A stretch of DNA of 57,163 nucleotides from Desulfurococcales archaeon. Its GTDB lineage: Archaea; Thermoproteota; Thermoprotei_A; Sulfolobales; NBVN01. The stretch spans positions 1-57,163 of the forward strand of contig JALSOP010000035.1 in NCBI GenBank assembly GCA_026986435.1, given 5' to 3'. Below, piece after piece: positions 19,275 to 27,521 of this stretch; positions within the stretch are counted from its first letter, which is position 1, and every line of letters begins with the position of its first letter. The notes beneath the pieces are model-generated. The model searched no databases, was not told the origin of the DNA, and worked only from the letters and a program-made list of their open reading frames with translations. A program made the position numbers and the translations under genes.

Positions 19275-19967
19275 TTGGCGGTCACTAGTGCCGAGAACGT
19301 CAAGGTAGCTGAAGGAGTGAGGGGGATAAGGGTTAGGTTAATTGCTATCTCTCGACCCATTGAGGGTGACGATCCCCGCAGGCTCATCGTCCTCGCCGTC
19401 AAGACCTCCGCGGGCAAGGTCAAGGAGAAAGGGGCTGAGTATTACCTCAAGCATTACCCCGATGAGAAGGTCGGTATGTGGGTCATAGCCGCGGCTAGGG
19501 GCTTTCCGTCGGTGCTCGAGCACGTGGTGATGACCTTCCTCATAGAGGGTTGTTCGAGGGTGTGCACGCACCAGCTCGTGAGGCACAGGATAGCATCGTA
19601 CACGCAGGAATCACAGAGGTACTCAGCTATCGAGCCCTCATTTGTTCTCCCGGAATCTATTGAGCGGGCAGGTCTGGGCGGGGATTACTTGGCTCTGCTC
19701 GAGGAGGCTAATCGCCTGTATCTGAAGGCTCTGGAGAGGGGGGTGCCCTACGAGGACGCAAGATATGCCCTGCCGCAGGGCATTACATCCAGGCTCGTAA
19801 TGACCGTTAATCTGAGGGAGCTGCTCCACATAGCGTGCCTGAGAACTGCGAGGGAGGCTCAGTGGGAGACCAGGTACGTGGTCAGCAGAATGATGGAGGA
19901 GGCCGCGAGAGTGGTTCCAGAGATAGAGGAGGCGGTTAAGGTGTACTGCAGGGATGGTGACGTATGA
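19275..19967 (+). CDS. thyX: Flavin-dependent thymidylate synthase
   Basis: 230 aa. ThyX motif QLVRHRIASYTQESQRY (RHRxxSxxxxSxR). Confidence 0.9.
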   Translation: MAVTSAENVKVAEGVRGIRVRLIAISRPIEGDDPRRLIVLAVKTSAGKVKEKGAEYYLKHYPDEKVGMWVIAAARGFPSVLEHVVMTFLIEGCSRVCTHQLVRHRIASYTQESQRYSAIEPSFVLPESIERAGLGGDYLALLEEANRLYLKALERGVPYEDARYALPQGITSRLVMTVNLRELLHIACLRTAREAQWETRYVVSRMMEEAARVVPEIEEAVKVYCRDGDV

Positions 19968-20494
19968 TCCTCTCGGATTTTGACCTTAAGGCATATATAG
20001 AGTCAGGAAGGCTCAAGATAGAGCCTTTCTTCAACGACACGATAAGGGAGAACGGGCTTGACCTCAGGCTCGGGCGCGGGTACTGTAAGCTGAGGCCGGG
20101 GGAGGTGGTCGTTGTTGAGGAGGGCAAGGACGTGAGCCACGCGTACGAGTGTGGTTTGTCGGATGACTTCATCGAGCTGGAGCCCGGTGGGAGGTACCTC
20201 CTGCACACGCTCGAGGTCGTTGCCCTGCCCCCCGAGCTGATGGCGTTCGTGGAGCTGAGGTCGACCTTCGCTCGCCTCGGGCTCATGATGCCGCCTACAA
20301 TAATAGATGGGGGCTTCGAGGGCCAGATAACCATCGAGGTCCTTGCCCCGCCGTTCCACCTTAAGCTCCCGGTGATGGCGAGGTTCCTTCACCTGGTGTT
20401 CGCTAAGTTGACGACGCCCGTCACTAAGCCGTATAAGGGGAAGTACCAGGGTCAGAGGGGAGTCACGCCCCCGATCCTTAAGGGTATCACGTAG
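19964..20494 (+). CDS. dcd: dCTP deaminase (possibly bifunctional dCTP deaminase/dUTPase)
   Basis: 176 aa. MILSDFDLKAYIESGRLKIEP, GLDLRLG and IDGGFEGQITIE. ATGA overlap with thyX. Confidence 0.88.
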   Translation: MILSDFDLKAYIESGRLKIEPFFNDTIRENGLDLRLGRGYCKLRPGEVVVVEEGKDVSHAYECGLSDDFIELEPGGRYLLHTLEVVALPPELMAFVELRSTFARLGLMMPPTIIDGGFEGQITIEVLAPPFHLKLPVMARFLHLVFAKLTTPVTKPYKGKYQGQRGVTPPILKGIT

Positions 20495-20501
20495 GGTGTC
20501 T

Positions 20502-20843
20502 TTATGTGTGGAAAAACTTCTCTACGTCCTTTCTTGACTGCCCGGGCATCGCCGGCATCTTTATCTCTCCGAACCTCTGCTCGTACTCCCTAACCTTAGC
20601 GACCATCATGTTAGCCAGTGCCTTGAACTGGAGGGGGGAGAGCTTTATCTCTATGAGGAGCTCCCTCACTATCTTCTCCACACTCATCGTGCCATCGGGG
20701 TTTGTGGAGGGCACTATTCTGTCGACAAAGAATATTATCGAGCCCTCGCCCGGGTTAAGCGTGCCTATGGCGCCTGTGGCGTGAACGGTCTTGTACCCCT
20801 CGGACTCCTTCGTCTCGAACCTTGGTAAGGGCACTCTGAACAC
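20502..20843 (-). CDS. Hypothetical conserved protein (possibly DUF3467-like)
   Basis: 113 aa with natural composition. The family call is a weak recollection only. Confidence 0.45.
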   Translation of the reverse strand: MFRVPLPRFETKESEGYKTVHATGAIGTLNPGEGSIIFFVDRIVPSTNPDGTMSVEKIVRELLIEIKLSPLQFKALANMMVAKVREYEQRFGEIKMPAMPGQSRKDVEKFFHT

Positions 20844-20951: not shown

Positions 20952-22907
20952 CTATCCTAGATAATTAGTTAGAGCGTTGTATCCCGCTACCAAGCCTTTC
21001 CCCGGTAGGGTAAACGCGTCCACACCGACCTCTCTAGCTGCACTATATAGGAGACCGAGATAGTACACCTTATCGATTCTTACCCCCTCCTTTACGTGTG
21101 TGACGGGTAACGGGCCCGCTTGGGTCATGACGTACTTCACAACCCCTCCCATAAGACCCGCGCGTGCGGCAGCGAGTGCCTGGGGAACCCTCCTAGGGGT
21201 GGGGGACGACCTCTTCGTTATTACTAGGTCGGCGAGAGATACCTCGTCATTGAGGAGTAGTGATGCCTTTTCAGCGAAGAGCGCTGACGCTGATGAGAGG
21301 GCTTCCTCGTACTCTCTTGGGTTCCGGGCCGATGCGAGGATCGTTAGTGCTTCGCTCTGTGCGTCCTTAACGAATTTGGGTGTGTCCCTCCTAACCATTG
21401 CGAGCCCCTTGACCTTGACCCGCCCCTCCGCTGTGAGGCCGAAGTACTTGTTCGCCGCACCACGCAACCCGTCCTTGATGGCTGGTATCGTTAGCCACAC
21501 ATACCTTGACTCAACCCTTATTGATAGACCGGTGACCATCTCGATCTCTGCCGCCACCTCCTCGGGTTGCGGGACACTAGGGCTCGCTGGCTGTATGAAT
21601 ATTGAGTCAACTATCGAGTGTATGACCCTGTACCCCATCTTCTCAGCGACTGCCTCAGCCTTCAGAAGCGTGTGCCTAGCGATCGAGGTCACGTTCTCGT
21701 ACGCCTGTATAGAGCCGAAGAGCGAGTTCCTGTAGCCTAGGTAGCCGAACGCAGCGACCAGCAACCACTTAACGGCGTCCGCTCTCTTAACAAGCCCCGC
21801 ATCCTTCTGCATGGCTCTCCTCCAGATGAGCTTCCTCAGCACGGACGGCACCACGCCCTCCTTATCCATGCAGACCGGGTGTATCCCGCCCTCCGGTACT
21901 GTCCCTCCCCGGCAGGCCACGCCCACGGTCTCGGCCGAGAGATTATGCTTCACTATTATGCTCGGGTAGAGGCTGTTGAAGTCCAGCTGCGCCACGCCCC
22001 AGTAGGTACCCGGCTCCGGCACCCTCCCGCCGCCGGCGAGATCGGCTGCTGCCAGTTCCCAGACCTTTCTCCAGCCCTCGATCCTGGGTGTTGAGGGGTC
22101 GAGTATGTAGCCCCTCCTCATCGCCTCTGCAGCCTCCGCTGTTGTGAGCACCTTACCGATGGGGGCCGCAGCCGCCTCTGGGAGGGGTAGGCCGGAGATC
22201 CTTGACCACTCTATCACGCCCTCCATTGAGCCAGCGAGCGGTGGCTCCATAACGATCCATTCGTCACTGTCTAGTCCGGGGAACAGCGCCCTGTCCTCGA
22301 ATCTGGCGATGACTACGTGGGGCCTGCAGTACCTCACTCCATCAACAACCTCCTCCGGCCTCGCAACGAACTCCTCTTCACCACACCTAATCATTACTCC
22401 CCCGACCCTGTCGCCGAGTATGGCAGGCCCGTGCCAGGCAAGCGCTGTGACCTCAGCGTAGCGTATGCTGGGGGTTTCGTAGAGTGGGTCATCGATGTCT
22501 TCGAGGGGGGATACCCTCCCAGATTCTACGCTCACTAGTGAGCCAGGCGGTGTGTTGTTCATCCTGAGGGCGACGGCAAGCTTATGCACCCTGTTGACCT
22601 CCCTGCCAATCCCGCGGGCCTCGAGCCAGTGCACGACTCTCGCCAGCGCCCTCAGGTCATCGCTCGCTAGCATCAGCACCCGTACCCTAACCTTGTAGTC
22701 GGGCGGCGCGAGCATCTCCTCCACCAACGCCTCCACTGAGTCCTCGCTAGACATGATCTGCTCCGCCAGTATCTGTGGGTCCGGCCTCGTCAGCACGTGG
22801 GCTGAGTACCTGATACGGGCCTTGACCCTCGCCAGGCCGTGCTCCGTGGTGAGAACCAGCTCCGTGCCCTCTGTTGCAGGTGATGCATCTATGAGGTACC
22901 CCTCCAC
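20952..22907 (-). CDS. Family B DNA polymerase, PolB3-like (short N-terminal region, degenerate motif C)
   Basis: Motif A DFNSLYPSII, motif B KWLLVAAFGYLGYRNSLFG. The motif C position reads YRVIHSIVDSIF instead of Y.DTDS. The track ORF extends to 23009, but its first 34 aa (MRLPRRRRLPLRPTLRPSGG...) look like non-coding translation. GTG at 22907 gives VEGYLIDASPATEGTELVL, a typical PolB N-terminus. Confidence 0.8.
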   Translation of the reverse strand: MEGYLIDASPATEGTELVLTTEHGLARVKARIRYSAHVLTRPDPQILAEQIMSSEDSVEALVEEMLAPPDYKVRVRVLMLASDDLRALARVVHWLEARGIGREVNRVHKLAVALRMNNTPPGSLVSVESGRVSPLEDIDDPLYETPSIRYAEVTALAWHGPAILGDRVGGVMIRCGEEEFVARPEEVVDGVRYCRPHVVIARFEDRALFPGLDSDEWIVMEPPLAGSMEGVIEWSRISGLPLPEAAAAPIGKVLTTAEAAEAMRRGYILDPSTPRIEGWRKVWELAAADLAGGGRVPEPGTYWGVAQLDFNSLYPSIIVKHNLSAETVGVACRGGTVPEGGIHPVCMDKEGVVPSVLRKLIWRRAMQKDAGLVKRADAVKWLLVAAFGYLGYRNSLFGSIQAYENVTSIARHTLLKAEAVAEKMGYRVIHSIVDSIFIQPASPSVPQPEEVAAEIEMVTGLSIRVESRYVWLTIPAIKDGLRGAANKYFGLTAEGRVKVKGLAMVRRDTPKFVKDAQSEALTILASARNPREYEEALSSASALFAEKASLLLNDEVSLADLVITKRSSPTPRRVPQALAAARAGLMGGVVKYVMTQAGPLPVTHVKEGVRIDKVYYLGLLYSAAREVGVDAFTLPGKGLVAGYNALTNYLG

Positions 22908-23071
22908 AGGCGCTCCCTCGCCAAGCAGATCATGACGCCGATGAGCACTGCCTCCAGAGGGTCTGAGAGTGGGACGAAGCGGTAGGCGTCGGCGGCGCGG
23001 GAGGCGCACTGGAGCAGTTTCTTAGCGACCTCCCTGTCCTCCGGGTCCTTGAGGGCGTTCGCTACCTTCAT
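22889..23071 (-). CDS. Small alpha-helical hypothetical protein between the RecA-like gene and PolB3
   Basis: 60 aa from the ATG at 23071 (79 aa if from 23128). MKVANALKDPEDREVAKKLLQCASRAADAYRF... has plausible composition. Overlaps the preferred PolB3 start by 19 nt. Confidence 0.35.
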   Translation of the reverse strand: MKVANALKDPEDREVAKKLLQCASRAADAYRFVPLSDPLEAVLIGVMICLARERLWRGTS

Positions 23072-23091
23072 GAGGCGGCGGATCTCCGCCT

Positions 23092-23712
23092 CTATAACAG
23101 GCCTAGGTGCGGGGATAGTCCGCCCCACTCCCTCATCACCTCCGCCTTGGGGAGAATGGTTATCCCGGGCGCTCTCCAGGCGTGCTTAACGATTTCTGCC
23201 CCGAACCTCTTCCTGTCGATCTCCCATAGCCTGATCACTGCGTGCATTACGTGGTGGTGGTAGTTCCCGCCCTCCGGCAGGAACCTACCGAACTTGCTCA
23301 CCGTATTGAAGACTGCCACCCTAACCCCCGAGTCGATGAGCTTCTTGATCGCTGCGACGATGGGCGTAACCCTGCTGTACTCCGCAGGGGTTTGTGGGGA
23401 GAAGAGGAAGGGGGTTCTCACCACGACTGTGTCGACCCATTGTGGCACGCTCCTAAGTAGTGTCGGCACGTCCTCTGCGCGGAAGGCTCTAGAGACCTTT
23501 ATTCTGTCGAGGCCGCTGCCGAGGACTTTGGTGAAGTAGCGGAGCATGTAGGGGTTCAGGCCGCCGAAGTCCTGGACAAGCGCTATCGCCACGTCCCCTC
23601 TCCTCGCCCTGCATGCTGTCACCCTATGCATTAGGGTAGTGACTATACTGCCCGCCCCGTAGAACTCGATTGCCCATACCTCGGGTAATGGGGTTATGAA
23701 GCGGTCGAGCAT
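23092..23712 (-). CDS. RecA/RadA/RadB-fold protein with degenerate Walker A and B motifs (hypothetical)
   Basis: 206 aa from the ATG at 23712. AIEFYGAGSIVTT sits where the family has .YG..GSGKT. VDTVVVRTP sits where Walker B hhhhDS is expected. RVAVFNTVSKFG..PEGGNYHHHVMHAVIRLWEIDRKRFGAEIVKH parallels vvvtNQV...P.GG..l.H...i.L.k...R.a.i.k. The track ORF (to 23907) is artificially extended through a tRNA gene. Confidence 0.55.
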   Translation of the reverse strand: MLDRFITPLPEVWAIEFYGAGSIVTTLMHRVTACRARRGDVAIALVQDFGGLNPYMLRYFTKVLGSGLDRIKVSRAFRAEDVPTLLRSVPQWVDTVVVRTPFLFSPQTPAEYSRVTPIVAAIKKLIDSGVRVAVFNTVSKFGRFLPEGGNYHHHVMHAVIRLWEIDRKRFGAEIVKHAWRAPGITILPKAEVMREWGGLSPHLGLL

Positions 23713-23790
23713 GCTGCACGTTATGACCGTCAGCGTGCCCCCATAATAAGCTATGCTTATAAAGTGGTCGTGGAGCCCGTTGTGATTTTG

Positions 23791-23890
<100 letters not shown>

Positions 23891-24042: not shown

Positions 24043-24411
24043 TCACTTACCGAAGGGCAGGAAGTCCGGTATCTCGGCCAGGTTTATTATTGGCACGACT
24101 ACGTAGCCAGGCTTACCGCCCTTTCCTATCTCGACGATCTCGCCTTCGGAGTCCGCCTTCACAAGGAGATAGTTTCCGTCGATCGGGTACTTCCTCTCCG
24201 CGTCGACGTAGTAGTAGATTATCGGGATCCCGTAGAGCCTGTAGTAGTCGCGGAACACCGCGAGGACAGCGTAGATCACATCCTCGCCCTTGAATATCCT
24301 CACTACATAGGTTATCTGCCCCATAGCAACGCTGGAGGCAGCCAGCCTGGCGAGGTCGTTCATGCTGGCGACCCTCACTCCGTACGCCTTGCTTATTTTC
24401 ACGTCCTCCAT
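24043..24411 (-). CDS. Hypothetical protein
   Basis: 122 aa. This frame has natural composition, unlike the overlapping Arg-rich frames at 24113..24421 and 24021..24293. No family recognised. Confidence 0.5.
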   Translation of the reverse strand: MEDVKISKAYGVRVASMNDLARLAASSVAMGQITYVVRIFKGEDVIYAVLAVFRDYYRLYGIPIIYYYVDAERKYPIDGNYLLVKADSEGEIVEIGKGGKPGYVVVPIINLAEIPDFLPFGK

Positions 24412-24490: not shown

Positions 24491-25051
24491 TTGGGGCGTT
24501 TTGAGATAAGATGGCACGGCAGGGGCGGCATGGGCGCAGTCACCGCCGCCGAGCTGACTGCCATGGCCGCCGTGAAGGCTGGCTACTACGCTGTCGCCTT
24601 CCCGGAGTTCGGTGCGGAGAGGAGGGGTGCCCCGGTTAAGGCATATACGAGAATTGACGAGGAGCCCATATACGAGAAGACACCTATTGAGGAGCCCGAC
24701 GCCGTAGTAGTACTCGATTCCTCCATGGTTGGGCAGGAGGCGGTCCTCCACGGCCTCAAGAGCAGTGGGTGGTATATAGCCAACACTGCCAAGGACCCGG
24801 AGGAGATCCGGAGAATCATTGGGAGGGATGACGTGAAGGTAGCGACTGTCAACGCCACTAAGCTCGCGATGGAGGTCTTTAAGGCACCTATAGTTAACAC
24901 AGCAATGATCGGTGCTCTCGTCGCCGCGACAGGCATAGTTCCTTTGGAGAAGGTCGAGGAAGCTGTGAGGGACAGGTTCCCCGAGCGCTACGTGGGTCCC
25001 AACATTAAACTCCTCAGGCAGGCATATGAGTCCGTGAGGGTGGTGGTGTGA
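24491..25051 (+). CDS. 2-oxoacid (pyruvate/2-ketoisovalerate):ferredoxin oxidoreductase, gamma subunit
   Basis: 186 aa. FEIRWHGRGGMG N-terminus typical of POR/VOR gamma. First gene of a 4-gene overlapping operon. Confidence 0.9.
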   Translation: MGRFEIRWHGRGGMGAVTAAELTAMAAVKAGYYAVAFPEFGAERRGAPVKAYTRIDEEPIYEKTPIEEPDAVVVLDSSMVGQEAVLHGLKSSGWYIANTAKDPEEIRRIIGRDDVKVATVNATKLAMEVFKAPIVNTAMIGALVAATGIVPLEKVEEAVRDRFPERYVGPNIKLLRQAYESVRVVV

Positions 25052-25372
25052 ATGACCGCTCAACTACCCGGTTGGAAATCCTTGCCCCCCGGCGCTGTCA
25101 TAACAAGGCCGGGGTCAACGGTTGAGTACAAGACGCATGACTGGAGAACCCTGCGGCCGGTCATCGACCAGGAGAGGTGCATTAGGTGCAGGCTCTGCTG
25201 GCTATACTGCCCGGAGGGCACCATAATTGAGCTCGACAAGCCCTACACCACCAAGGCGGGAAGAAAATACACGAGGACCTACGAGATAAACTACGACTAC
25301 TGCAAAGGGTGTGGGATCTGCGCTCAGGAGTGCCCTGCTAAAGCGATAAAAATGATTGAAGAGGTGAGGTGA
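25052..25372 (+). CDS. 2-oxoacid:ferredoxin oxidoreductase, delta subunit (2x[4Fe-4S] ferredoxin-like)
   Basis: 106 aa. CIRCRLCWLYCPEG and CKGCGICAQECP cluster motifs. Confidence 0.9.
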   Translation: MTAQLPGWKSLPPGAVITRPGSTVEYKTHDWRTLRPVIDQERCIRCRLCWLYCPEGTIIELDKPYTTKAGRKYTRTYEINYDYCKGCGICAQECPAKAIKMIEEVR

Positions 25373-26571
25373 GGATGGCGGGCAAGAAGAAGCTACCCCT
25401 CTCAGGCAACACCGCTATAGCATACGCCGCTAAAGCGGCTGATGTCGACGTGATCTCCGCCTACCCAATAACCCCACAAACAACCATCGTGGAGAAGCTC
25501 GCCGAGTTCGTAGCCAACGGCGAGCTGAATGCTGAGGTGATCCATGTCGAGTCCGAGCATTCAGCGCTGTCGGCCGCCGTCGGCGCCTCCGCAGCCGGTG
25601 CGAGGGTGTTCACGGCGTCCTCGTCGCAGGGCATTGCCCTCATGTATGAGATAATGTTCATAGCGTCCTCGATGCGGCTCCCGATAGTCATGGCTATGGC
25701 AACAAGGGCCCTCTCCGCGCCCATCAACATCTGGAACGACCACGGCGACTTCATGGCAGCCTCCGACACCGGGTGGGTCATGATGATGGCCCACACCAAT
25801 CAGGAGGCTCACGACGACGTCATATTGGCTTACAAGATCGCCGAGCACCCGGACGTCCTCCTACCAGTGATCACGGCCATAGACGGGTACTTCATGAGCC
25901 ATACCATTGAGCCTGTCGAGCCTATTGAGAGAGAGGAGGCACTGAAGTTCATACCCAAGAAGGTGACGTGGAGAGTTCTTGACCCCGACAACCCAGTGAC
26001 CATGGGCCCGCTCGGCACGCCCGAGTGGTACTACGAGTTTAAGAGGCAGCAGCATGAGGCGATGAAGAAGGCGAGGGAGGTATTTGATGAAGCAACCAAG
26101 GAGTTCGAGAAGACGTTTGGGAGGAACTACGAGCCCGTTGAGTACTTTATGATGGATGACGCCGAGTACGCCCTCGTCGCGATGGGCAGCGTCGCGGGCA
26201 ACGTGAAGGCATACATAGTTAGGGAGGCAAGGAAGAGGGGCATAAAGCTGGGGCTCATAAGGGTCAAGCTCTTCAGGCCGTTCCCTGCTGAGGAGATAGC
26301 GGAGGTCATAAGCAACCTGAAGGCCGTAGGCGTGATAGACAGGGCCCTAGCCTTCGGCTCATCCTATGGCGGGCCACTCTATGGGGACACACTATCAGCG
26401 GCATACATCAGAGGGATCGATACACCGATAGTGAACTTCGTTGCAGGTCTAGGAGGTAGACCGGTGACGTTCCACGATATCAAGACAATGGTTGACGCCA
26501 CGCTGGCGTTGGACGGGAAGACCAGGAAGGATGTTCCTAAGGAGCCTTACTTTATAGGGGTGAGAGAATGA
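25369..26571 (+). CDS. 2-oxoacid:ferredoxin oxidoreductase, alpha subunit
   Basis: 400 aa. GNTAIAYAA...ISAYPITPQT and the SEHSA block. Confidence 0.9.
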   Translation: MRMAGKKKLPLSGNTAIAYAAKAADVDVISAYPITPQTTIVEKLAEFVANGELNAEVIHVESEHSALSAAVGASAAGARVFTASSSQGIALMYEIMFIASSMRLPIVMAMATRALSAPINIWNDHGDFMAASDTGWVMMMAHTNQEAHDDVILAYKIAEHPDVLLPVITAIDGYFMSHTIEPVEPIEREEALKFIPKKVTWRVLDPDNPVTMGPLGTPEWYYEFKRQQHEAMKKAREVFDEATKEFEKTFGRNYEPVEYFMMDDAEYALVAMGSVAGNVKAYIVREARKRGIKLGLIRVKLFRPFPAEEIAEVISNLKAVGVIDRALAFGSSYGGPLYGDTLSAAYIRGIDTPIVNFVAGLGGRPVTFHDIKTMVDATLALDGKTRKDVPKEPYFIGVRE

Positions 26572-27521
26572 GCACAAAGCCCAAGATCCCAACTATTTGG
26601 GACATACCGAGGGAGGAACTCTTCGCGCCTGGCCATAGAATGTGCCAGGGATGCGGAGCTGCCATATTGATGAGGCACATAACGAAGGCCCTGGGGAAAG
26701 ACGCCATAATAGTTGAGGCCACTGGCTGTGTCGAGGTCACCACGACTGTTTACCCGCAGACCGCGTGGAAGCACCCATGGCTGCACATAGCGTTCGAGAA
26801 CGCTGCCGCCGGTGCGTCAGGTGTTGAGGCGGCGATAAAGGCCCTGAAGAGAAAGGGAGTAATACCGAAGGACAAAAAGGTCAAGGTCGTCGCGATAGGC
26901 GGTGATGGCGGAACCTTCGACATAGGCCTGCAGGCCCTCTCCGGCATGCTGGAGAGAGGGCATAACGTGCTCTACATAGTGTACGACAACGAGGCATACA
27001 TGAACACAGGAATACAGCGCAGCGGTGCCACACCATATAAGGCGTGGACCACCACAACTCCCGTCGGTAAGGTGTGGCGCGGTGAGTGGAGGCCTAAGAA
27101 GGACATAATGGGTATCGTGCTAGCGCACAGAGTGCCTTACGCAGCCACCGTCAACCCGGCGTATATAACGGATCTCTACATGAAGGTGAGGAAGGCAGTC
27201 GAGATCGAGGGGCCGACCTTTATACACGCGTTCTCGCCGTGCACGCCCGGCTGGAGGATAGACCCTGCCCTCACAGTGACCGTAGCGAGGCTAGCCGTGC
27301 AGACCGGAGTGTGGATTAACTATGAAGTGGAGAATGGCGAGTTCAGGGTGACGACGCCAGTGTCGAGGAGGAAGCCTGTTAGGGATTACCTGAAGCTTCA
27401 AGGGAGGTTCCGCCACCTCACCGAGGAGGAGATTGCTGAGATACAGCGTATGGTTGACGAGGAAGTGGAGCGAATTAACAGGCTCGTCGGCAAGACAGTC
27501 ATTGGGCCGGTTGTTAAGTGA
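26568..27521 (+). CDS. 2-oxoacid:ferredoxin oxidoreductase, beta subunit (TPP-binding)
   Basis: 317 aa. CQGCG, ATGC, GGDGGTFDIGLQALS and YDNEAYMNTG. Confidence 0.9.
   Translation: MSTKPKIPTIWDIPREELFAPGHRMCQGCGAAILMRHITKALGKDAIIVEATGCVEVTTTVYPQTAWKHPWLHIAFENAAAGASGVEAAIKALKRKGVIPKDKKVKVVAIGGDGGTFDIGLQALSGMLERGHNVLYIVYDNEAYMNTGIQRSGATPYKAWTTTTPVGKVWRGEWRPKKDIMGIVLAHRVPYAATVNPAYITDLYMKVRKAVEIEGPTFIHAFSPCTPGWRIDPALTVTVARLAVQTGVWINYEVENGEFRVTTPVSRRKPVRDYLKLQGRFRHLTEEEIAEIQRMVDEEVERINRLVGKTVIGPVVK

Follow-up and report, generated by a model that had tools for sequence, protein, structure and literature searches.

Within a stretch of 57,163 nt of a Desulfurococcales archaeon (contig JALSOP010000035.1, in the following called the window) three co-directional, tightly packed genes attracted attention, because a preliminary description had proposed that they encode an undescribed module of a pseudo-recombinase, a small helical protein and a crippled DNA polymerase. 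The question was therefore whether the trio is indeed new, or whether it belongs to a system that is already known. The open reading frames were confirmed on the minus strand (Table 1). The locus is very probably an ordinary chromosomal copy of the known archaeal PolB2 "mutasome" operon, iRadA-PPB2-PolB2, of a Desulfurococcales-type archaeon. The trio is already known and no new pairing was found: the operon of PolB2, an inactive RadA and arCOG07300 was described in 2013/2014 (Makarova et al., 2014, PMC4104785), and the PolB2 mutasome was modelled in 2025 as a heteropentamer with a MGRT arm, a D(K/R) motif and a shuttling PIP motif (Timinskas et al., 2025, PMC11791011).

Table 1. Features of the iRadA-PPB2-PolB2 locus (positions in the window).
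Feature	Position	Strand	Remarks
iRadA	23092..23712	-	206 aa, ATG start, ORF
PPB2 (arCOG07300)	22889..23128	-	79 aa, GTG start, ORF
PolB2 (Dpo2-type family B DNA polymerase)	20952..22907	-	651 aa from GTG 22907
TATA-like box TTTATAA	23757..23763	-	45 nt upstream of iRadA ATG, between tRNA-Gln and iRadA; read from sequence
Degenerate P-loop GAGSIVTT of iRadA	23635..23658	-	profile alignment to P. furiosus RadA
VVVRTP of iRadA, strand matching Walker B	23410..23427	-	register from family alignment, no superposition
iRadA C-terminal tail WGGLSPHLGLL-stop	23092..23127	-	compared with tails of 56 complete homologues
PolB2 loop STPRIEGWRKVWELAAADL	22038..22094	-	ends in invariant Asp289 of D(K/R) motif, here DL
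PolB2 motif A DFNSLYPSII	21954..21983	-	catalytic Asp309, family-invariant
PolB2 motif B-like KWLLVAAFGYLGYRN	21726..21770	-	Lys kept; Asn-Ser of KxxxNSxYG replaced by Val-Ala
PolB2 motif C HSIVDS	21603..21620	-	first Asp of DxD is Ile; second Asp (D434) invariant
PolB2 C-terminal tail YNALTNYLG	20955..20981	-	PIP-like: L4, Y7, L8 of QxxLxxFF

By profile comparison and structure prediction, the 206-aa protein is an inactivated RadA/Rad51-core protein, iRadA (family identifiers arCOG07763/04294/08101). As a single sequence it had no match in Pfam, NCBIfam or PDB, and a word-indexed protein search retrieved only five relatives. A tiny orphan family was ruled out with an HMM of six sequences, which in its first pass found homologues in 63 of 81 PolB2 loci. 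None of the homologues found in protein-database searches was functionally named, and those with a name were called "hypothetical protein". The family profile matched the RadA structure 5jed_A across the whole core (E 9e-11) and also Rad51 (E 1e-9), an HMM built from Sulfolobales sequences alone matched the window protein (E 1.8e-12), and the Pfam family Rad51 was matched by six of 35 iRadA family members. The best Foldseek matches of an AF2 model (pLDDT 84, pTM 0.84) were RadA/RAD51 (E 1e-9, TMq 0.6-0.73, probability 1.00); about 40 Rad51-Pfam-positive relatives were included in the underlying alignment, which may have biased the fold, and the independent match of the HMM to RadA argues against an artefact. 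The RadA fold that had been read from the sequence was thus recovered, although not the whole of RadA: the N-terminal helical (HhH) domain is missing, and the alignment begins at the RadA core, at residue 114 of full-length 1pzn.

Both degenerate nucleotide-binding motifs of the preliminary description were confirmed in the sequence. GAGSIVTT is the counterpart of GEFGSGKT in P. furiosus RadA, with Val in place of Lys, and in 61 of 61 homologues this column was occupied by V, L, I, T or A and never by K. The Walker B Asp, kept by half of the family, is Thr100 in the window protein (D 30, Y 18, F 6, N 3 and T 2 among the 61 homologues, the window protein being one of the two with T). For this register the family alignment was used together with the order of strands, because a shared "PY" shifts the HMMER alignment to RadA. 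Neither Walker A nor Walker B, the intact forms of which mark RadB and active RadA paralogues, was preserved. The C-terminus also differed from that of the relatives, which end in Q(R/H)xL(x)EWL-stop (family form WGGQRxLxEWL-stop), while the window protein ends in LSPHLGLL-stop. With a loose regular expression a PIP-like tail was found in 46 of 56 complete homologues, so the motif is frequent in the family and not obligatory, and the window tail was not PIP-like. Judged from the alignment, it represents a decayed form of the PCNA-binding motif that has been described for the iRadA tail (PMC11791011).

The small ORF can be assigned to PPB2 (arCOG07300) by profile searches and by its predicted structure. 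An HMM from which the window and its closest relative were left out matched the protein with an E-value of 1.1e-17 (aligned residues 1-72), and one made from Sulfolobales alone with an E-value of 3.9e-5. Homologues formed 13 representative clusters among 1.84 billion representatives, all aligning from residue 1. The N-terminal MGRT arm (here MGRTIPAPR, with R3 and R9), also found in 66 related loci, is followed by three helices, and an AF2 model of the single sequence (pLDDT 82; helices 9-24, 29-48 and 57-77) agreed with the helical nature noted before. A Foldseek search with this model yielded no significant match, the best being the N-terminal domain of SigE (8b3z_B, E 1.5, probability 0.23). 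Because the MGRT terminus is conserved and homologues align one-to-one from residue 1, the start was set at the GTG at 23128 (79 aa), rather than at the ATG that would give 60 aa. An SD-like GGAGGTGA is situated 7 nt upstream of this GTG. Consequently, the iRadA and PPB2 genes overlap by 37 nt; the 20-nt gap of the preliminary description had resulted from the 60-aa version, whereas the 19-nt overlap between PPB2 and PolB2 was verified.

The polymerase had been labelled PolB3, and this label had to be given up. On sequence it groups with PolB2, the Dpo2 group, rather than with PolB3 or PolB1. Its full-length relatives (620-670 aa; 560-680 aa over all full-length matches) are all Dpo2/PolB2-type proteins that lack the exonuclease, have a h[IV]DS motif C and adjoin PPB2 and iRadA; they include Caldisphaera, Thermogladius and Acidianus "DNA polymerase II". 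The N-terminus MEGYLID lines up with the starts of the homologues. The only Pfam match was PF00136 (E 8e-21), the exonuclease family PF03104 was matched neither by the window polymerase nor by its relatives, and the alignment of the family profile to solved PolBs began no earlier than profile position 173-264. In agreement with the first reading, an exonuclease domain or active site (Exo I-III) was not detectable. PolB1 and PolB3 structures matched only the C-terminal two thirds (palm, fingers, thumb), and neither the intact 3'-5' exonuclease domain nor the canonical YxDTD motif C that characterize PolB3 was present. Motif A and the motif B-like block were found as previously described, as was the degenerate motif C: because HSIVDS aligns with YIDTDG and YGDTDS of solved PolBs, it is the first Asp that is replaced by Ile, while the second is kept. 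Motif C was h[IV]DS in 20 of 20 aligned PolB2 sequences, a replacement that is typical of the family and not universal. D289, D309 and D434 were invariant in the same sequences, and the motif B Lys was invariant across the family.

Two further regions of PolB2 deserve attention. In the loop that precedes the palm domain, the residues R275, E277, R280, L285 and D289 are conserved. Asp289 was found in 20 of 20 sequences, and it is followed by Leu in the window clade, by Met in some relatives and by K/R in the others. By analogy to the published model, the beta-alpha segment in front of Asp289 may be the Rad51-oligomerisation-like motif that binds iRadA (PMC11791011), and as D(K/R) reads DL here, one modelled contact to the PPB2 arm may differ. 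At the C-terminus, relatives with 75-89 % identity retain LTNYLG-stop but vary in the 25 residues ahead of it. A loose PIP regular expression matched 15 of 79 complete PolB2 tails, with a chance estimate of about 20 %; since both values are about equal, the PIP-like tail was treated as a lead only.

Relatives are encoded at 501 genome loci, 81 of which were examined. All three genes were present in 62 of them, in 35 cases in the window's order iRadA-PPB2-PolB2, and the loci without the full trio were mostly truncated contigs. As the arrangement recurs in most of the 81 loci, it is far beyond chance. What the data show, then, is that each of the three proteins is a member of its family (iRadA, PPB2 or PolB2) and that their linkage is widely conserved. 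The TATA-like box upstream of iRadA is a putative operon promoter. ANTTTC is the damage-response hexamer of Sulfolobus; when the 78-nt spacer between tRNA-Gln and iRadA was read by eye for this hexamer, it was absent. Orc1/Cdc6, SRAP and DUF72, which are reported to be enriched near polB2, were not encoded by any of the ten flanking genes, and therefore the damage-response linkage of some genomes is not visible in this neighbourhood.

Three other explanations of the locus were weighed. The complex could be enzymatically dead and form a structural or regulatory assembly, e.g., at stalled forks or origins. This view, in which both the polymerase and RadA are inactivated, was held in PMC4104785, which predates the Dpo2 biochemistry, and the preliminary description had likewise called the polymerase crippled and possibly non-catalytic. 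The losses of the first Asp of motif C, of Asn-Ser in motif B, of the whole exonuclease site and of the Walker A motif of iRadA are in line with it. However, the metal-binding Asp pair (D309 of motif A and D434 of motif C) and the motif B Lys are family-invariant. Moreover, Dpo2 of S. islandicus, in which motif C reads 401-IID-403 (PMC11791011) and thus has the same Ile-x-Asp form, is an active translesion extender polymerase (PMC8764526), with robust nucleotide incorporation and mismatch extension (PMC8764526; PMC11791011) and without exonuclease activity (PMC8764526). Robust polymerase activity is known for Dpo2 of both S. islandicus and S. solfataricus, which have the I-x-D motif, and damage-induced mutagenesis depends on dpo2. 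The notion of a crippled polymerase was therefore abandoned, and a dead complex is regarded as unlikely.

Even less can be said for the original proposal, in which a PolB3 paralogue, deprived of the exonuclease and of part of the active site, recruited a pseudo-recombinase into an undescribed module. PolB2 is thought to descend from PolB3-like ancestors, and the best sequence matches in the PDB were Thermococcales and Pyrobaculum PolBs. However, these matches span palm, fingers and thumb only, every full-length relative is a PolB2 linked to PPB2 and iRadA, and the pairing is already in print, so that its novelty is refuted and this reading has become hardly credible. Lastly, the trio might be the cargo of a mobile element recently integrated at tRNA-Gln, a gene that lies 78 nt upstream. 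The GC content of 0.60-0.63 over the trio, compared with 0.52-0.58 in the flanks, and the reported horizontal movement of PolB2 operons among archaea would fit. In contrast, neither tRNA-derived nor other flanking direct repeats were found, and the adjacent genes are housekeeping genes without an integrase among them. The tRNA adjacency was also found in the closest relative (locus L002), and only there; as it is common to both, any insertion was not recent. A recent integration is thus very improbable. A mobile origin would leave the identity of the module unchanged.

For the iRadA-PPB2-PolB2 operon a mechanism can be proposed, the steps of which are taken from published Sulfolobales work and published AlphaFold models. 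The trio would share one transcript, for which the TATA box at 23757-23763 is the probable promoter element, and the translation of PPB2 and PolB2 would be coupled via the overlapping GTG starts with SD-like sequences ahead of them. PolB2 would be an active, proofreading-free polymerase that extends mismatched or lesion-opposed primer ends after DNA damage. A PPB2 trimer, which was modelled in PMC11791011 as part of a heteropentamer with PolB2 and iRadA, may insert one of its MGRT arms close to the DNA, where PolB2 and iRadA meet. iRadA, presumably unable to bind or hydrolyse ATP, would be a structural subunit that is held by the Rad51-oligomerisation-like beta-alpha loop of PolB2. The complex might reach PCNA via a C-terminal PIP motif that either iRadA or PolB2 carries; the iRadA motif would have decayed in this lineage, and the tail of PolB2 is PIP-like. 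The general idea of the preliminary description was supported, namely one module in which a proofreading-less PolB is partnered by a small helical protein and by a RecA/RadA-fold protein with a dead ATPase, with a link to lesion tolerance. Proofreading-free polymerisation and induction by DNA damage are known only for the Sulfolobales enzymes, and according to a 2026 review the mutasome holoenzyme still lacked experimental verification.

It is tempting, though rather doubtful, to regard the small Desulfurococcales clade of the window as a natural snapshot of the "shuttling" clamp motif that has been proposed for PolB2 mutasomes, in which the ancestral PIP tail of iRadA changed from WGGQRxLxEWL-stop to WGGLSPHLGLL-stop and PolB2 gained the PIP-like LTNYLG-stop. 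In the same clade D(K/R) of PolB2, the contact for the PPB2 arm, would have changed to DL, and Asp at the Walker B position of iRadA to Thr. If this were true, the connection of the complex to PCNA, and perhaps also that to PPB2, would not be the one modelled for S. islandicus.

The closest known system is the Dpo2 operon of Sulfolobales, which shares with the window the three protein families PPB2, PolB2 and iRadA, the I-x-D motif C, the inactive exonuclease and the MGRT arm of PPB2; over 91 % of its length the window polymerase shares 33 % identity with the PolB2 of Acidianus. Differences are the gene order, which is PPB2-PolB2-iRadA in Sulfolobales (loci L074, L077 and L081), the length of the window PolB2, which exceeds that of Sulfolobales by about 80 aa, the DL instead of DK at the D(K/R) motif, the Thr at the Walker B position of iRadA, and the iRadA tail without aromatic PIP residues. 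[quoted passage not shown] In contrast to the PolB2 mutasome, the polymerase of Pol V belongs to the Y-family and not to the B-family, its RecA is the active recombinase of the cell and not a dedicated dead paralogue, and UmuD' is a dimer of unrelated fold. Eukaryotic Pol zeta (Rev3-Rev7 with Pol31/Pol32) resembles PolB2 as a multisubunit B-family lesion extender with an inactivated exonuclease and a link to DNA damage, but differs by its unrelated accessory subunits and by the lack of a RecA-fold partner. The bacterial ImuA-ImuB-DnaE2 cassette is a mutagenesis operon with a degenerate RecA-like ImuA alongside an error-prone polymerase; unlike the window operon, it has a C-family polymerase and a dead Y-family adaptor, without homology to PPB2 or PolB2.

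Taken together, iRadA, PPB2 and PolB2 are suitable names for the three genes, and in the annotation the PPB2 start should be set at the GTG at 23128. The locus opens no new question and is a further ordinary instance, in which the clamp-binding motif may have been relocated, of the PolB2 mutasome, which has been proposed to be the main machine of damage-induced mutagenesis in many archaea.

The three genes are an unremarkable copy of an operon that is already known, iRadA-PPB2-PolB2 (the PolB2 mutasome). [quoted passage not shown] The partners were renamed PPB2 and iRadA by Timinskas et al. (2025), who also modelled the complex (PMC11791011). The module is thus known, and the novelty claimed for the pairing in the preliminary description does not hold.

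All three genes are co-directional on the minus strand, and the observation of a three-gene module was confirmed, with the start of the small gene corrected. Homologues of the polymerase aligned with its N-terminus only from the GTG at 22907 (MEGYLID...), and therefore the 651-aa reading was chosen. With the chosen starts, iRadA and PPB2 overlap by 37 nt; the 20-nt gap described earlier was the product of an internal ATG, which yields a 60-aa version. The 19-nt overlap between PPB2 and PolB2 has the same value with both GTG starts. Shine-Dalgarno-like sequences precede the GTG codons of the small gene (GGAGGTGA) and of the polymerase (GAGGGAG).

Features of the operon and its surroundings (forward-strand numbering)
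Feature	Position	Strand	Remarks
iRadA, 206-aa ORF	ATG 23712 to stop 23092	-	ORF reading
PPB2, 79-aa ORF	GTG 23128 to stop 22889	-	ORF reading
PolB2, family B polymerase ORF	GTG 22907 to 20952	-	ORF reading; 651 aa; longest reading 685 aa
TATA-like TTTATAA	23757-23763	-	between tRNA-Gln and first ATG
tRNA-Gln(CTG)	23791-23889	-	99 nt; 78 nt upstream of iRadA start
DUF3467 gene	20502-20843	-	between ThyX/dCTP deaminase-like pair and PolB2
ThyX and dCTP deaminase-like genes	19275-20494	+	4-nt mutual overlap
122-aa ORF	24043-24411	-	between tRNA and oxidoreductase operon
2-oxoacid:ferredoxin oxidoreductase operon	24491-27521	+	gamma, delta/ferredoxin, alpha, beta; genes overlap or abut

As a single sequence, the 206-aa protein had no match in Pfam, NCBIfam or the PDB, and a word-indexed protein search retrieved five relatives only. 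A tiny orphan family was rejected as an explanation, because this scarcity was a search artefact: the first pass with an HMM of the protein and these relatives (six sequences) found homologues in 63 of 81 PolB2-containing loci. A 35-sequence family profile aligned with P. furiosus RadA along the complete ATPase core (E 9e-11) and also matched Rad51 of yeast and human (1e-9 to 1e-7) and RAD51D, and six of the 35 members matched Pfam Rad51 individually. An HMM built solely from the three Sulfolobales iRadA sequences recognized the window protein with an E-value of 1.8e-12 (Z = 1e6). The AF2 model (58 sequences, pLDDT 84, pTM 0.84) showed the alternating strand-helix pattern of the RecA core, and the best 50 Foldseek matches comprised RadA, Rad51, DMC1, RAD51 paralogues and RecA (E about 1e-9, probability 1.00, TMq 0.55-0.73). 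In the RadA alignment EFYGA-GSIVTTLMH falls on EVFGEFGSGKTQLAH. The column equivalent to the Walker A lysine was occupied by V, L, I, T or A in all 61 full-length homologues, and the Walker B aspartate column contained Asp (30), Tyr/Phe (24), Asn (3) or Thr (2, including the window). The window protein is devoid of the N-terminal domain of RadA. The RadA fold and the inactivation show that the earlier reading as a Walker-less protein on the RadA/RadB core was correct, and the protein is iRadA. The iRadA sequences of two Geothermarchaeota/Nitrososphaeria loci (L061 and L063, 4012-4632) contain GGIRPGKT; a retained ATP site was rejected, because the motif precedes the place of the actual P-loop and is a chance Walker-A look-alike.

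Read from its GTG, the small ORF begins with MGRTIPAPR... According to the literature, PPB2 (arCOG07300) is characterised by three helices preceded by an N-terminal 'MGRT' arm that carries Arg3 and Arg9 (PMC11791011). An HMM from 39 neighbours of PolB2 genes, excluding the window and its nearest relative, matched the small ORF from residue 1 (E 1.1e-17), and a Sulfolobales-only HMM gave 3.9e-5. When 1.84 billion representatives were scanned in full with HMMER, 13 PPB2 clusters (67-88 aa) were recovered, of which 12 align from residue 1. The single-sequence AF2 model (pLDDT 82) had a free arm (1-8) and three helices (9-24, 29-48, 57-77), in agreement with the helical ORF noticed earlier. Foldseek gave no significant match for this model; the SigE N-terminal domain ranked first, which belongs to the match class given for PPB2 in the literature, but at E 1.5 it carries no evidential weight.

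The sole Pfam match of the polymerase was PF00136 (polymerase domain), the exonuclease domain PF03104 was not found by Pfam, and NCBIfam gave sub-threshold matches to 'type B DNA polymerase' models of about 665 aa. Full-length relatives (about 560-680 aa; Desulfurococcales, Caldisphaera, Thermogladius and Acidianus, the latter annotated 'DNA polymerase II') had PF00136 only. A 20-sequence family profile matched solved PolBs only from profile position 173-264 onward, after the exonuclease domain. HSIVDS aligned on YIDTDG (Deep Vent) and YGDTDS (5mdn) of solved structures; motif C is therefore degenerate, as had been noted, with Ile for the first Asp and the second Asp kept. Motif C was h[IV]DS in 20/20 aligned relatives, and D309 (motif A), K380 (motif B), D434 (motif C) and Asp289 were invariant. 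Asp289 belongs to the D(K/R) loop motif before the palm domain, which reads DL in the window and has Leu throughout its clade. S. islandicus Dpo2 has 401-IID-403 and 253-DK-254 (PMC11791011). Judged by its sequence, the window polymerase carries the published hallmarks of PolB2/Dpo2, and the PolB3 label was wrong.

A one-genome-per-species scan revealed 501 loci encoding polymerase relatives, the best in a Desulfurococcales MAG (89 % identity). Among the best 80 loci plus one metagenomic contig (n=81), a neighbourhood survey as proposed earlier showed that the adjacency is conserved, with all three genes in five arrangements (62/81): the window order iRadA> PPB2> PolB2> (35), PPB2< iRadA< PolB2> (11), iRadA< PPB2< PolB2> (7), iRadA< PPB2> PolB2> (6) and the Sulfolobales order PPB2> PolB2> iRadA> (3). 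The other 19 were mostly contigs cut beside the polymerase. Neither partner was detectable in L049, L057 and L005 despite about 5 kb of upstream sequence, and L050, L055 and L059 (Nitrososphaeria/Geothermarchaeota) had PPB2-PolB2 and no iRadA within the fetched flanks. PolB2 was present as two ORFs in L073 (4673-6632, Desulfurococcales MAG, overlapping frames) and L076 (4107-6305, Bathyarchaeota MAG), and in L013 (4131-6161, Aeropyrum MAG) its N-terminal part was on the opposite strand; frameshifts, genuinely split genes or misassembly may account for these breaks.

The operon lies directly downstream of the tRNA-Gln gene, the length of which is enough to imply an intron. This adjacency was also present in the nearest relative (L002, 4021-4119) and in 0/36 other PolB2 loci scanned. 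The GC content was slightly raised at 21500-23600, which covers iRadA and PPB2 together with the 5' half of PolB2 (0.60-0.63 versus 0.52-0.58 in the flanks); neither flanking direct repeats nor an integrase were found around the operon. Housekeeping genes flank the operon (Mut7-C, AMMECR1, ThyX, Dcd, DUF3467 and the four subunits of a 2-oxoacid:ferredoxin oxidoreductase), and none encodes Orc1/Cdc6, SRAP or DUF72, which are reported to be enriched near polB2. The pair of ThyX (flavin-dependent thymidylate synthase) and dCTP deaminase-like genes converges on the 3' end of the operon. The 122-aa ORF had no Pfam match.

PIP-like (PCNA-binding) iRadA tails (...WGGQRxLxEWL or ...RTLLEWL...) were found in 46 of 56 complete tails with a loose regex; in the window and its nearest relative iRadA ends in WGGLSPHLGLL, devoid of Gln and the aromatic residue. 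The window PolB2 ends in YNALTNYLG, resembling the QxxLxxWL tails of Thermococcales PolB. The terminal LTNYLG is retained in relatives at 75-89 % identity, and the residues ahead of it are variable. Because about 20 % of PolB2 tails are expected to match the PIP regex by chance, this tail is only a lead, which fits the published 'either/or' pattern, the PCNA-binding motif 'shuttling' between iRadA and PolB2 (PMC11791011).

Dpo2 of S. islandicus polymerises robustly, has no exonuclease activity and extends termini that are mismatched or lie opposite a lesion, and among the polymerases dpo2 is required for damage-induced mutagenesis (Feng et al., 2022; PMC8764526), which for the family contradicts a 'crippled' polymerase. 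The functional interpretation in the preliminary description is partly supported: the module, the dead RadA fold and the link to damage tolerance are upheld, whereas PolB3, 'crippled' and undescribed are not. The published model is a heteropentamer of PolB2, iRadA and three PPB2 with the MGRT arm, in which a Rad51-oligomerisation-like loop of PolB2 binds iRadA (PMC11791011); according to a 2026 review, experimental verification of the complex is still awaited. On the basis of the Sulfolobales experiments and the published models, the operon would encode a PCNA-tethered complex built around an extender polymerase for damage tolerance.
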